A stretch of 64,000 nucleotides of DNA, from assembly GCA_001819605.1 (NCBI GenBank), contig MHNE01000008.1:13054-77053 (forward strand), in the 5' to 3' direction. Shown here piece after piece: positions 11,034 to 64,000 of this stretch (position 1 is the first letter of the stretch; every line of letters begins with the position of its first letter). The translations under genes and the position numbers were made by a program. The stretch comes from Candidatus Portnoybacteria bacterium RIFCSPLOWO2_01_FULL_43_11. Its GTDB lineage: Bacteria; Patescibacteriota; Minisyncoccia; Portnoybacterales; UBA2143. The notes beneath the pieces were generated by a model. The model was not told where the DNA came from and searched no databases. It saw only the letters and a list, made by a program, of their open reading frames with translations.

Positions 11034-11930
11034 TTAGCTCCGTTGACTAGCCAAAAAGACATTTTTCAAAAGCAAGGCTACTGTCAACGGCCCCACTCCG
11101 CCGGGCACTGGCGAAAGCCAACCGGCTTTTTCTCCTACGCTTTCTTTATCAATATTGCCGATGGCTTTTTTGTCTTTTTTAATAAACCCGGCGTCAATCA
11201 AGACAACTTCCTTTTTAATCATTGAGCCCTTAATAAAATTTGGCTTATTCAAAACCGTAATTAAAACATCTGCCTTTTTAACAATATCTTTTATGTCCTT
11301 TTTGTCAAATAAATTATATTCAATCTTTAAGCTGTTTATCTTAAAAAAATCTTTCAATACCCGGCCAAAGACATTTGAATTAACCAAAGCCAATATTTTT
11401 TTATTTTTAAAATTTTTGCCTGATTTTTTAAGAGCGGTTAAAATCGCCGAGGGTAAAACCGGAAAAAAATAAGGTGTCCCCTTTTTTAATAATTTTCTGT
11501 TTAATTTATGAAAACCGTCAATGTCTTTTTTGGGACTGATTGACTGAATAATTTTTTCCGTTTTTAAACCAGTCGGCAGAGGCAATTGAACAATAATGCC
11601 ATCAACTGATTTGTCTTGGTTAAAGTCTTTTATCCTCTGGATAATTTTTAATTCTTTGGCGTTTTTTTGAAATCTTTCCTCAATAACTTCGAGGCCGATT
11701 TTTTCCGCCGCTTCTTTTTTCAATTTAACATAAAGCTCTGAAGCGGGATTTTTACCGACCATGACTATCGCCAATCTAAGTTTCTTTTTATTTTTTTTTA
11801 CCCCGCACTTTTCAAGAGCTATTTTTCTTGATGCCGTAGGCATCGAATACTTGAAAGGTGCGGGGCTTATTTTATTTTTTAAGTCCAGTAAAATTTTCTC
11901 CGCCTCTTTTTTACCATTGAAAATCTTCAT
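11034..11930 (-). CDS. folD: bifunctional methylenetetrahydrofolate dehydrogenase/cyclohydrolase
   Basis: VGKNPASELYVKLK and DGIIVQLPLP motifs. Confidence 0.85.
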   Translation of the reverse strand: MKIFNGKKEAEKILLDLKNKISPAPFKYSMPTASRKIALEKCGVKKNKKKLRLAIVMVGKNPASELYVKLKKEAAEKIGLEVIEERFQKNAKELKIIQRIKDFNQDKSVDGIIVQLPLPTGLKTEKIIQSISPKKDIDGFHKLNRKLLKKGTPYFFPVLPSAILTALKKSGKNFKNKKILALVNSNVFGRVLKDFFKINSLKIEYNLFDKKDIKDIVKKADVLITVLNKPNFIKGSMIKKEVVLIDAGFIKKDKKAIGNIDKESVGEKAGWLSPVPGGVGPLTVALLLKNVFLASQRS

Positions 11931-57641: not shown

Positions 57642-57842
57642 ATGGATTTTGGATCTTCTCTGCTAGACCTATTAAGTGTCTATATCGTAATAGGGGTTCT
57701 CTTTTTAGTTATTGGTTTGCTAATACCTCGAACCCCCCTCTATTCTGACGGAAAACAATTTTGTATGATAATGGGAGGAGTGGTACCGCTTGCTGGAACA
57801 ATCTTTGTGTTATTTATTTTTTTCTTACAATTCTTACAATAG
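57642..57842 (+). CDS. small hydrophobic two-TM protein (about 67 aa) with a strong SD (AAGGAGG)
   Basis: AAGGAGGTG lies 8 nt upstream of the ATG; two predicted TM helices (VYIVIGVLFLVIGLLI; VVPLAGTIFVLFIFFL). Confidence 0.5.
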   Translation: MDFGSSLLDLLSVYIVIGVLFLVIGLLIPRTPLYSDGKQFCMIMGGVVPLAGTIFVLFIFFLQFLQ

Positions 57843-57864: not shown

Positions 57865-58137
57865 ATGAAACAGAAAAACGGAGAAAAAATGTGCCTTACT
57901 TGGTGGAAAAGTGATAAACACTATTCTCTCGATTCATACGACTACGGTGAAGACGATGTCAGAGAAATTATTGGAGAAGTAACCTTAACTAGCGACGCAA
58001 ACAATCTTATCACAGCGTTAATTCTATTAACAGGTATTACAGACGCAGATTGCCAAGAACTTACAGACCCTATCAACGAAATCATTACCAAATACATCAA
58101 GCTAGTCTTAGAAAAACAACATCAGCCTGCTTTTTAA
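57865..58137 (+). CDS. small acidic cytoplasmic protein (90 aa) with a strong SD
   Basis: AAAGGAGAAATAA upstream of the ATG; D/E-rich; lies in the same unit as 57642-57842. Confidence 0.5.
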   Translation: MKQKNGEKMCLTWWKSDKHYSLDSYDYGEDDVREIIGEVTLTSDANNLITALILLTGITDADCQELTDPINEIITKYIKLVLEKQHQPAF

Positions 58138-60717: not shown

Positions 60718-60969
60718 CTAAAACGGCAAGTCCTCAACCTTGACTTCGTCTTCGGGAACTATTTCTTCCAAATTATTTTCGTTTGGATTTTTGAGTCCGG
60801 CAATATCCTGATTAACTTTTTCTATTTCCGTGCTTTCGGACGGATTATCTTTTTCTAACAAATTCTCGTAATCTTTCATTTTCATCACCACATACATCGG
60901 TTTATCGTTCTCTATTATAATACACTTTCCGCTGTCTTTTTGCAATATATTTTTAATAGTTTTCCACAT
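60718..60969 (-). CDS. small acidic hypothetical protein between fusA and tuf, with weak Phd/YefM-antitoxin-like N-terminus
   Basis: 83 aa; KCIIIENDKPMYVVMKMKDYENLLE resembles the YefM beta-alpha pattern; start lies 2 nt after the fusA stop. Confidence 0.35.
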   Translation of the reverse strand: MWKTIKNILQKDSGKCIIIENDKPMYVVMKMKDYENLLEKDNPSESTEIEKVNQDIAGLKNPNENNLEEIVPEDEVKVEDLPF

Positions 60970-60970
60970 A

Positions 60971-63100
60971 TTACTTCTTTCCTCCGCTAATTACTTCCTC
61001 CGCCACATTCTTTGGCACTTCCTCATAACGGCTGAACTCCATAGTGAATGTGGCCCGACCTTGAGTCATAGAACGCAAACGGGTGGCATAGCCAAACATT
61101 TGAACCAAAGGCACTTTGGCGTCTATCACTTTCATCCGACTGATTCCTTCTCCTCTATCCTGCATCTCTTCAATTCTGCCTCTTTTGGAATTAATATCGC
61201 CAATAACATCGCCCATAAAATGCTCCGGAGTCACTGCTTCAAGCTTCATAGTCGGCTCTAATAAAATTAAGTTGGCTCTTTTTACCGCGGCTTGAAGAGC
61301 CATTGAGCCGGCAATTTTAAAAGCCGCTTCCGAGGAATCCACATCGTGATAAGAACCGTCATAAAGAGTCGCTTTCAAATCCACTAAAGGATAACCGGCC
61401 AAAACGCCTTTGTCCATAGCTTCTTTAATTCCTTTTTGAACAGCCGGAATAAATTCATGGGGAATAATCCCGCCTTTAATCGCGTCAACAAATTCAAATC
61501 CCTTACCCTGCTCCTGCGGCTCAACCCTTAACCAAACATGGCCATATTGACCCCGGCCGCCGGTCTGGCGAATATATTTCCCTTCCGCTTCGGCCGTTCC
61601 TTTTATTGTTTCTTTATAAGCCACTTGAGGCGCGCCGACATTAGCCCCCACTTTAAATTCCCTCAACATTCTATCAACAATTATCTCCAAATGCAATTCA
61701 CCCATGCCGGAAATAATGGTCTGACCGGTTTCAATGTCGCCTTTAATGCGAAAAGTCGGATCTTCTTCGGAAAGCCGCCTTAGGGCAATACCCATTCTTT
61801 CCTGATCGGCTTTTGTTTTTGGCTCAATAGCTATTGAAATAACCGGTTCCGGGAAAATGATTTTTTCCAAAATTATCGGGTGGTCCGGGTCACAAAGAGT
61901 GTCGCCGGTTGTGGTCGCTTTTAAACCAACCGCGGCCCCGATGCCGCCGGCGTAAATCTCTTTCACCTCTTCCCGCTTATCAGCATGCATTCTTAAGATG
62001 CGGCCGATTCTTTCTTTCTGACCGGAACTGGAATTTAAAATATAAGAACTGCTGTTTAAAATACCGGAATAAACCCTAAAAAAGGTCAGCTGACCCACAA
62101 AAGGATCTGTGGCCACTTTAAAGGCCAAAGCCGAAAACGGCGCTTCGTCTTTTGACTCGCGAATCATCTTCTTTTTTTCGTCTTTTGGATCAAAACCCTC
62201 AATCGGCGGCAAATCTATTGGCGAAGGCAAATAATCTATTATCCCGTCTAAAAGCAATTGAACGGCTTTATTTTTAAGGGCTGAACCGCAAAAAACCGGC
62301 ACTAATTGATAGTTGATAACGGCTTGCCTCAAAACTCTTCTTAAATCTTCCTCGTTAATTTCCCGTCCTTCCAAATATTTTTCCAATAATTGTTCATCCT
62401 GTTCGGATATTTTTTCCACCAATTCTTTTCTTATTTCCATAACGCCCGCTTTTAATTCGTCTGGAATTTCTTCTTCAAACACATTCTCTCCGAAATCACC
62501 CTGAAATTTATAGGCCTTTATTCTGATTAAATCTATCACTCCCTCGTGCTTATCCTCCAAACCAATCGGAATCTGAACGGCTATTGCGTTAGGAGTCAGT
62601 CTTTCCAAAATAGACTGAAAACTTTTTTCAAAACTGGCGCCGGTCCGATCCAGTTTATTAATAAAGCAAATACGGGGCACTTTGAATTTATCCGCCTGAC
62701 GCCAAACCGTCTCTGATTGCGGCTCTACCCCGGCCACGCCGTCAAAAACAACCACGGCGCCGTCTAAAACTCTTAAAGAGCGCTGGACTTCCACGGTAAA
62801 ATCAATATGGCCGGGCGTGTCAATGATGTTAATCTGATATTCTTCCTTTTTTTCTTTATTACCGGATAAATATTTTCGCGGCGTCCAAAAGCAGGTCGTG
62901 GCCGCTGAAGTGATAGTGATGCCTCTTTCTCTTTCCTGCGCCATCCAGTCCATAATCGCTTCGCCCTCGTGAACCTCGCCGATTTTATGGGAAACGCCCG
63001 TATAAAAAAGCACCCGTTCACTAACGGTCGTTTTCCCGGCATCAATATGAGCGATGATGCCAATGTCCCTAATTTTCTCAATCGGATACTGCCGCGGCAT
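60971..63100 (-). CDS. fusA: elongation factor G
   Basis: [17 protein letters not shown] and NKLD motifs; 709 aa with five domains. Confidence 0.98.
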
Positions 63101-63273
63101 AAACCCAATCTACCAAATTAAAATAAATTTATCAACCCCGCGCCTTTTAAGGATAAGCAAATTCACAAAGTGAATTTGTTTTTTAATAAAAATCCTCAAT
63201 AGGTGCGGGGTCAAGCCTAAAAATAAAAAACCAGGTCGGCTGAAAAAACCGCCTCGTTCTTTTAAAAGTGAAA

Positions 63274-63639
63274 TTACAGAATTTTAACCACGCCTTCTCG
63301 AATAATTATCAATTTGTCCTCTAATTTCTTCAATTTAAACTTCTTTAGAAAAGGAATTAAATAACGAATAACATTCTGCGGAGATTGATCTCTTAATCTT
63401 AATAAAATAACGCCTCTGTGTTTCTGATGAAATTGATGGATAAGATTTCCAAAATCTTTATCATGAGTAATAATAATCCGTTTTTGTTTCTCGGCCAATT
63501 TCAAAATTTCTTCGTCATTCATAGCGTAAAATTTATTCTCTCCGATACCCAAAACATCAAAACCTTTGTCTCTTAGGGTTTTAATAACTATCGGAGCGAT
63601 ATTTTCGTCAGCTATAAAACCCTTCATAAAATCAAGCAA
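63274..63639 (-). CDS. DUF5615 (Mut7-C/PIN-like) putative toxin
   Basis: FIADENIAP.VIK.LR.KGFDV...D.EIL.LA..QKRIIITHDKDFGNL......H.GVILLRL matches the DUF5615 consensus pattern. Confidence 0.6.
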   Translation of the reverse strand: MLDFMKGFIADENIAPIVIKTLRDKGFDVLGIGENKFYAMNDEEILKLAEKQKRIIITHDKDFGNLIHQFHQKHRGVILLRLRDQSPQNVIRYLIPFLKKFKLKKLEDKLIIIREGVVKIL

Positions 63640-63847
63640 AAACTAATTCTTCACGCTTGACTGTCTTGGCCGCGTAATCAATGGCCGCTAAAACATCGGC
63701 TTTTTTAAGACGGGGATATTCCTCGACGATTTCTTCAACGGTCATTCCAGAAGCCAAAAGCTCCAATATAAACTCAACGGAAATGCGAGTTCCTTTTATA
63801 ATCGGTTTGCCGCCAAATATTTTTTTATTGTAAGTAATGCGGTTCAT
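63632..63847 (-). CDS. DUF433 putative antitoxin
   Basis: GGKPIIKGTRISVEFILELLASGMTVEEIVEEYPRLKKADVLAAIDYAA matches the DUF433 consensus pattern; overlaps the downstream gene by 8 nt. Confidence 0.6.
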   Translation of the reverse strand: MNRITYNKKIFGGKPIIKGTRISVEFILELLASGMTVEEIVEEYPRLKKADVLAAIDYAAKTVKREELVFA

Positions 63848-63883
63848 ATATTTAATTCTACCAAATCAAAATAAATTGATCAA

Positions 63884-64000
<117 letters not shown>

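Follow-up and report, generated by a model that had tools for sequence, protein, structure and literature searches.

A DUF433/PIN-like toxin-antitoxin pair predicted at a variable rpsG-fusA junction of a Portnoybacteria genome

The pairing of DUF433 proteins with PIN-like proteins was predicted in 2009 (Makarova 2009, PMC2701414) and the family has been partly validated since. One such locus, a type II toxin-antitoxin (TA) system of the PIN-COG2442 kind, is vapBC10 (ssr2962/slr1767), found in Synechocystis sp. PCC 6803: its PIN protein arrests the growth of E. coli and is neutralised in a complex with the DUF433 protein, an antitoxin that also binds the promoter of vapBC10 (PMC3834315). Within the PIN-like superfamily the COG4634, PIN_10 and Mut7-C domains are grouped together, and the PIN-like domains of the Mut7-C group are predicted toxins paired with DUF433 antitoxins (PMC5499597). 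The DUF433 domain of Rv2018, in VapBC45 (Rv2018/Rv2019) of Mycobacterium tuberculosis, is fused to an additional winged-helix domain (PMC2701414).

We describe here a pair of this type in a window of 64,000 nt (the whole stretch of DNA that was analysed) from a groundwater member of Candidatus Portnoybacteria; loci used for comparison are given L numbers. The genes of this locus are all encoded on the minus strand. The window edge cuts rpsG, the gene for ribosomal protein S7, so that only its 3′ end is included (63884..64000; Pfam Ribosomal_S7, E 1.1e-11); the full gene is present in L001. The rpsG end is followed by a 36-nt spacer, a gene for a 71-aa DUF433 (COG2442) protein, the predicted antitoxin (63632..63847), a gene for a DUF5615 PIN-like protein of the Mut7-C group (COG4634-type), the predicted RNase toxin (63274..63627), a 173-nt spacer, fusA encoding EF-G (60971..63100; assigned from the ORF and from the Pfam domains of the identical L001 gene), an 83-aa ORF (orf83) and tuf. 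The rpsG C-terminus and the fusA start are both where the original prediction had placed them. Of the two same-strand small genes that it described between them, the 71-aa DUF433-like gene stands as called, while the second, given as 121 aa and overlapping the first, is shorter. According to public gene calls and to the N-termini of 30 homologues, translation starts at the ATG at 63627, which yields 117 aa and leaves a gap of 4 nt after the DUF433 stop. The alternative TTG start upstream, at 63639, gives the 121-aa product and an 8-nt overlap with DUF433; an exact look-up of this product returned no record, because gene callers choose the ATG. Two small, adjacent, closely spaced and co-directional genes with the antitoxin first make the layout typical of a TA module. 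The arrangement recurs unchanged in several samples, on at least 24 contigs, all with an identical DUF433 protein; one of them belongs to GCA_001821675.1 (Candidatus Portnoybacteria bacterium RIFCSPLOWO2_01_FULL_43_11).

Profile searches bear out the DUF433 and DUF5615 assignments made originally. The smaller protein matches PF04255 (E 4.5e-25; 87.7 bits against a cut-off of 23.6) over model positions 1-56 of 56. The toxin matches PF18480 (E 8.2e-24; 84 bits) and also exceeds the Pfam gathering scores of PF01927 Mut7-C (27.7 bits, cut-off 23.3) and PF18478 PIN_10 (27.0 bits, cut-off 26.2). Neither protein matched an NCBIfam model, PADLOC had no defence-system model for the pair, for orf83 or for the unfamiliar ORFs of the sister species described below, and no phage homologue of the toxin was found. 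The acidic residues expected of a PIN-like active site are conserved in sequence: among 30 homologues with 30-90% identity, D7, D38, D56 and D58 are invariant and E8 is conserved in at least 90%. An AF2 model of the toxin (pLDDT 89) gave no significant PIN match in a Foldseek search against the PDB, the best match being a CheY-like fold with E 0.016; the PIN-like assignment therefore comes from the sequence profiles alone. The missing match agrees with the literature, in which the Mut7-C/COG4634 branch has a reduced fold and no solved structure (PMC5499597). A search of the PDB by sequence yielded no relative of the toxin and a weak match of the DUF433 protein to the DUF433 structure 2ga1.

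Judged by these profiles, the pair is a new but ordinary representative of a known family, the DUF433/PIN-like VapBC type, and its context is unusual. As in VapBC10, a small DUF433/COG2442 gene is located immediately upstream of a PIN-type gene and the two make a two-gene unit. The toxin, however, belongs to the reduced Mut7-C/COG4634/DUF5615 branch (it is set apart from VapC10 by family, not by direct comparison), the host is a member of the Patescibacteria, the site is the rpsG-fusA junction and the promoter-like elements are duplicated. The likeness to VapBC45 and to DUF433-PIN_10/COG4634 pairs lies in the toxin, which passes both the PIN_10 and the Mut7-C cut-offs; the difference lies in the antitoxin, a minimal 71-aa DUF433 protein here, in contrast to Rv2018 with its added winged-helix domain. 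We consider it likely that the pair is a functional type II TA module of the DUF433(COG2442)/PIN-like(COG4634-DUF5615) VapBC type, residing at the rpsG-fusA junction as a self-contained cassette. By analogy with vapBC10, the DUF433 protein would bind and neutralise the PIN-like nuclease, and loss of the antitoxin, for example through proteolysis or a stop in its synthesis, would leave the toxin free to cleave RNA and arrest growth.

The same pair is present at the junction in L098, where the toxin is 90% identical at the amino acid level and the DNA is 84% identical to the window over the pair and 87% over the fusA 5′ end. Between the window and L098 the dN/dS ratio is 0.12 for DUF433 (dS 0.67) and 0.06 for DUF5615 (dS 0.88), as for functional genes under purifying selection; the dS values are similar to that of the fusA 5′ end (0.68), which argues for vertical inheritance at this site since the split of the two species. 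The comparison indicates that the pair consists of functional genes kept at this site since the two species diverged. Chromosomal TA loci often decay, and the array of the sister species contains an apparently truncated NTase gene without a HEPN partner; one could suppose on these grounds that the pair is a neutral or decaying passenger whose toxin activity is gone. Such a reading is very improbable given that both frames are intact, that the acidic residues are invariant, that the protein is identical across many samples and that dN/dS is this low at dS of ∼0.7-0.9.

The proposal that the pair is an insertion was assessed in a scan with EF-G as the query, for which each species was represented by one genome. 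Eighty loci (L009-L088) were kept, ∼70 of which hold both S7 and EF-G. Neither DUF433 nor DUF5615 was detected anywhere in these 80 loci of other species, and in the nearer relatives (76-79% EF-G identity) only 5-11 nt separate the S7 stop from the fusA start. The spacing comparison supports, in agreement with the original prediction, an insertion rather than a lineage core gene: both families are recognised by their profiles and the pair, far from universal at this locus, is missing in ∼70 genomes. The insert does not stand out as foreign by base composition, its GC content of 34.5% being within the normal range of the window (39.2 ± 4.1%). The family as a whole has the patchy spread of accessory genes, with DUF433/DUF5615 pairs in other contexts and also on three plasmids. 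In Nealsonbacteria and other Patescibacteria, homologous pairs (56-64% identity) lie co-directionally between housekeeping genes, for example between YqeY and FtsA-FtsZ or between a carbohydrate kinase and thioredoxin reductase; wedging between core genes is thus normal for this family in these compact genomes.

The larger rpsG-fusA gaps found in other Patescibacteria (L020, L030, L043, L044, L049 and L081) contain ORFs without a TA family. The insert in L049 (2071-3228) carries a 385-aa antisense gene that resembles, by eye only, fructose-1,6-bisphosphate aldolase/phosphatase, and the insert in L043 (2668-3994) carries ORFs of 160 and 313 aa without a family. In L030 (JAGGVK010000053, 3959-4236) unrelated sequence follows the fusA 5′ end and the match to EF-G resumes ∼240 nt further on; this break in fusA may be an insertion or an intron at the G1 motif.

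In the closest relatives the junction holds other genes. The sister species, Portnoybacteria RIFCSPHIGHO2_02_FULL_39_12 (L009, L089, L092 and L093; EF-G 86% and S7 94% identical to the window), has ∼3.7 kb after rpsG, with genes for MNT (E 7e-18) and HepT (E 2e-32), unassigned ORFs of 111 and 220 aa, the apparently truncated NTase gene, and genes for HicB (E 8e-12) and HicA (E 4e-20), followed by fusA. The overlap of L092 and L093 is identical at 1760 of 1760 bases, so the array is contiguous. In L108 (S7 82%) rpsG is followed by HEPN, MNT and NUDIX genes and then fusA; in L098 by HEPN and MNT genes, orf85, the DUF433/DUF5615 pair and orf85b, and then fusA. What follows rpsG is an MNT gene in L111 (S7 85%), an NTase-like fragment in L106 (S7 92%), a gene for a tRNA_bind protein in L110 (S7 84%) and 147 nt of hairpins with no gene in L109 (S7 80%). 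As judged from this handful of short metagenomic contigs and from consensus-level predictions, the rpsG-fusA junction is a lineage-specific variable spot of TA cassettes in this subclade. The context that had seemed striking for the pair is not unique to it, since close relatives bear MNT/HepT, HicBA and HEPN/MNT at the same junction. We found no published description of a variable TA islet in the rpsG-fusA junction.

A separate observation concerns the NTase gene of the sister species (L092 1400-1832). Its 119-aa product starts at position 17 of 93 of the model, after a mini-ORF of 21 codons; the gene is probably a frameshifted, decaying cassette.

Horizontal-transfer hot spots and defence or TA islands are known to hold variable accessory content between conserved core genes. 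The junction is similar to them in that accessory content varies between the same two core genes in related genomes. It differs in its very small size (0.75-3.7 kb), in its position inside a normally contiguous operon and in its repeated terminator-plus-promoter module, which would preserve expression of the essential genes downstream. A single junction of the otherwise conserved rpsL-rpsG-fusA-tuf cluster forms, within an ultra-small and streamlined genome, a small variable islet with different RNase-type TA modules in closely related species, and we regard this islet with its repeated module as more interesting than the pair itself.

The insert is bracketed by a 29-nt direct repeat that the original prediction had missed. 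Copy 1, TTGATCAATTTATTTTGATTTGGTAGAAT (63855..63883, minus strand), directly follows the rpsG stop, and 7 nt separate it from the DUF433 ATG; copy 2, TTGATAAATTTATTTTAATTTGGTAGATT (63107..63135, minus strand), ends 6 nt before the fusA ATG. The copies differ at three positions and are the only two matches in 64 kb, with none expected. Both fit the sigma-70 consensus (a consensus match only): TTGATC in copy 1 and TTGATA in copy 2, a 17-nt spacer, TAGAAT in copy 1 and TAGATT in copy 2 (TAGAWT), and a TG extension before the second hexamer. With a position weight matrix made from ten copies of the element, copy 2 scored 41.2 bits and copy 1 37.5 bits, as against 11.5 bits for the next best site in the window; given this difference we rejected the idea that the element is the generic promoter of the genome. 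The spacer is conserved far more than a promoter requires, and the element may have another role. The distance between the end of the second hexamer and the start codon is 6-11 nt in most copies, with no Shine-Dalgarno sequence present, from which we infer leaderless mRNAs. The element is a candidate for a strong, probably leaderless promoter in a group without genetic tools.

In the sister species, L107 and L111, too, the rpsG stop is followed directly by the element. In the sister array it precedes the NTase gene, hicB and fusA, and the first 27 nt of copy 2 are identical upstream of the sister fusA; in L098 it follows the pair. Each unit is bounded by copies of this one specific element, usually after a terminator-like hairpin. 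Ten small ORFs of the window, checked for other TA pairs bearing the element, proved to encode ATP synthase subunits, GatC and similar housekeeping proteins. Among unrelated metagenome contigs, a few carry the element ahead of small genes; it is absent from viral contigs. In L091 (1847-1873) the genes for tRNA-Ala and tRNA-Ser come just before it, and an XRE-HTH gene and a gene for a 109-aa protein come after it. L096 (283-309) has an exact 27-nt copy, located after a terminator and ∼230 nt upstream of an S14-like gene.

The spacer between the toxin gene and fusA was described in the original prediction as a structured stretch of ∼170 bp with a palindrome inside a CCCCGC...GCGGGG stem. This description holds: the 173 nt fold at −57.1 kcal/mol versus −33.5 kcal/mol for shuffled sequences (z = −6.3, 0 of 200 shuffles as good), and the stem spans 63210..63136. 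A search of Rfam with positions 62900-64000 gave only sub-threshold matches at chance level, and the spacer corresponds to no described RNA family. Its parts, in order, are a terminator-like hairpin, a palindromic element and the second copy of the 29-nt element before fusA. The terminator-like hairpin (63218..63262, minus strand; identified by a scan and by folds) has a GC-rich stem, GGCGG/CCG-CC with one bulged A, followed by GTTTTTTATTTTT; the consensus scan matches at 63251..63237 and the predicted fold has −16.9 kcal/mol. By pattern and by predicted folds, a GC-rich hairpin directly before a T run is what an intrinsic terminator has. A hairpin with a T run follows the cassette in four species (the window, the sister species, L098 and L096), with different sequences. 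Since the window hairpin is modest, with its −16.9 kcal/mol and a bulge, some read-through into fusA might occur.

The palindromic element (63136..63214, minus strand; fold −37.6 kcal/mol) has the stem CCCCGCACCTATTGAGGAT / ATCCTTAAAAGGCGCGGGG and, within it, an apical hairpin CAAATTCAC-TTT-GTGAATTTG at 63178..63158. It has TTGA on either side, and the modules of L098 and L096, which are homologous in other respects, lack it; it thus has the look of an insertion into the first hexamer region of copy 2. The outer stem has 17 of 19 positions paired in the window and a perfect 19 in the sister species, where two positions are changed on both sides. The apical hairpins of the two species differ in sequence and have the same shape. 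A second copy of the palindrome, with the stem CCCCGCAC...GTGCGGGG and another interior, is found in a different intergenic gap of the window (11795-11870; −32.9 kcal/mol), which suggests a small dispersed family of the REP or MITE type. Such a family would be consistent with a hairpin that has a conserved stem and a variable interior at at least two intergenic sites of the window and, at the locus described here, TTGA/TTGA flanks; unlike typical members, it has only two copies in 64 kb, no linked transposase and no clear target duplication at the second copy. In the sister species another hairpin, a perfect 17-bp stem with a T run, stands between the promoter-like element and the fusA ATG (L092 2745-2797). 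It is flanked by duplicated TATGAGAG and looks like a small palindromic insertion that places a terminator-like structure into the fusA leader.

With respect to expression, we propose that copy 1, after the rpsG stop, would drive the pair, probably together with read-through from rpsL-rpsG. The mRNA of the pair would probably be leaderless, because the second hexamer ends 7 nt before the ATG. Transcription would end after the toxin gene at the hairpin and T tract, and copy 2 would re-start transcription of fusA, orf83 and tuf, which would protect the essential genes downstream against polar effects. The insertion would then have split the ancestral str operon with the essential downstream genes still expressed and, if the elements are active, fusA and tuf depend on an acquired promoter. 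Co-transcription of the pair with translation factors, as put forward in the original prediction, is weakened by these features. The two promoter-like copies and the terminator-like hairpin suggest that the pair is probably a separate transcription unit and not simply a co-transcript of fusA; as far as the sequence can indicate, read-through from rpsG into the pair is plausible and joint transcription with fusA is doubtful.

A functional tie to the str operon would take the opposite course. The pair would be co-transcribed with rpsL, rpsG and fusA, and the RNase would tune the mRNAs of translation factors and ribosomal proteins, thereby linking ribosome synthesis to growth arrest. The pair is indeed on the same strand, 36 nt after rpsG with no terminator between, has been held at the site across two species under purifying selection, and several RNase-type TA families gather at this junction in relatives. 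Still, we consider such a tie quite improbable. The pair is missing in most relatives, and the sister species has unrelated cassettes instead; a promoter-like element of its own, the terminator-like hairpin and the second promoter-like copy for fusA speak against a shared transcript; and homologous pairs elsewhere in Patescibacteria, lying between unrelated housekeeping genes, argue against a specific tie to translation genes.

Chromosomal integron arrays contain TA cassettes with their own promoters, have repeated structured DNA between cassettes and vary in content among close relatives. The islet is similar to such arrays in having several unrelated TA pairs in one co-directional array, with their own promoter-like elements and repeated structured DNA. 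It differs in that no integrase occurs within 10 kb and no attC-like architecture is seen, and in that it lies between two essential translation genes and not downstream of attI. The integron/attC reading was rejected on the architecture and on the lack of an integrase; the comparison with attC was made by eye, on hairpins with 17 of 19 bp paired in the window and 19 of 19 in the sister species. A related explanation is a site-specific cassette platform, integron-like without a nearby integrase, in which recombination would take place at the module made of terminator, hairpin and 29-nt element, and each cassette would pass between genomes as a unit. Copies of the 29-nt element bound the cassettes, the whole module is present twice in the sister array with 98% identity over 225 nt, and the element, which is not a promoter in general use in this genome, stands before small accessory genes on unrelated contigs, once beside tRNA-Ala and tRNA-Ser. 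We nevertheless find this explanation unlikely. No recombinase family is present among the called genes up to 10 kb on either side (by precomputed Pfam families), the hairpin is a near-perfect duplex without attC bulges and the boundary reads GTTGATA, not GTTRRRY. Moreover, some boundaries of the sister array and of L108 have no 29-nt element, the large hairpin, absent in L098 and L096, is unneeded at a boundary, and homologous recombination via conserved flanks explains the same pattern.

For the TA cassette that we favour, the most likely route of exchange would be the one just named, homologous recombination, acting via the repeated promoter/terminator module or via the conserved rpsG and fusA flanks. 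We put forward more tentatively, as a possibility rather than an expectation, that the portable module of terminator and 29-nt element lets accessory cassettes settle in essential operons and prevents polar damage there; the junction would thereby have become an integrase-free exchange platform in one Portnoybacteria subclade, with TA modules of at least four families gained, lost and swapped by recombination at the repeated module. The locus offers a concrete, testable case of the way in which essential operons of Patescibacteria may come to be colonised by accessory genes.

Two further observations concern small ORFs in the translation gene clusters of the window. The acidic 83-aa product of orf83 is encoded on the minus strand (60718-60969) directly between fusA and tuf, and the ORF is kept at the same place in relatives of the Portnoybacteria clade (46-66% amino acid identity); its sole family match is a sub-threshold one to the Phd/YefM antitoxin (E 0.0027). 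Two other small ORFs, of 66 and 90 aa, are located on the plus strand (57642-57842 and 57865-58137) between rplC and rplD, antisense to the S10 operon, and make a second unusual insertion in a ribosomal operon. Neither has a Pfam or PADLOC family; both are called as genes in all contigs of the population, and the sister species has a 90-aa ORF of equal length at the corresponding place (L092 8276..8004), the likeness being one of length and position.
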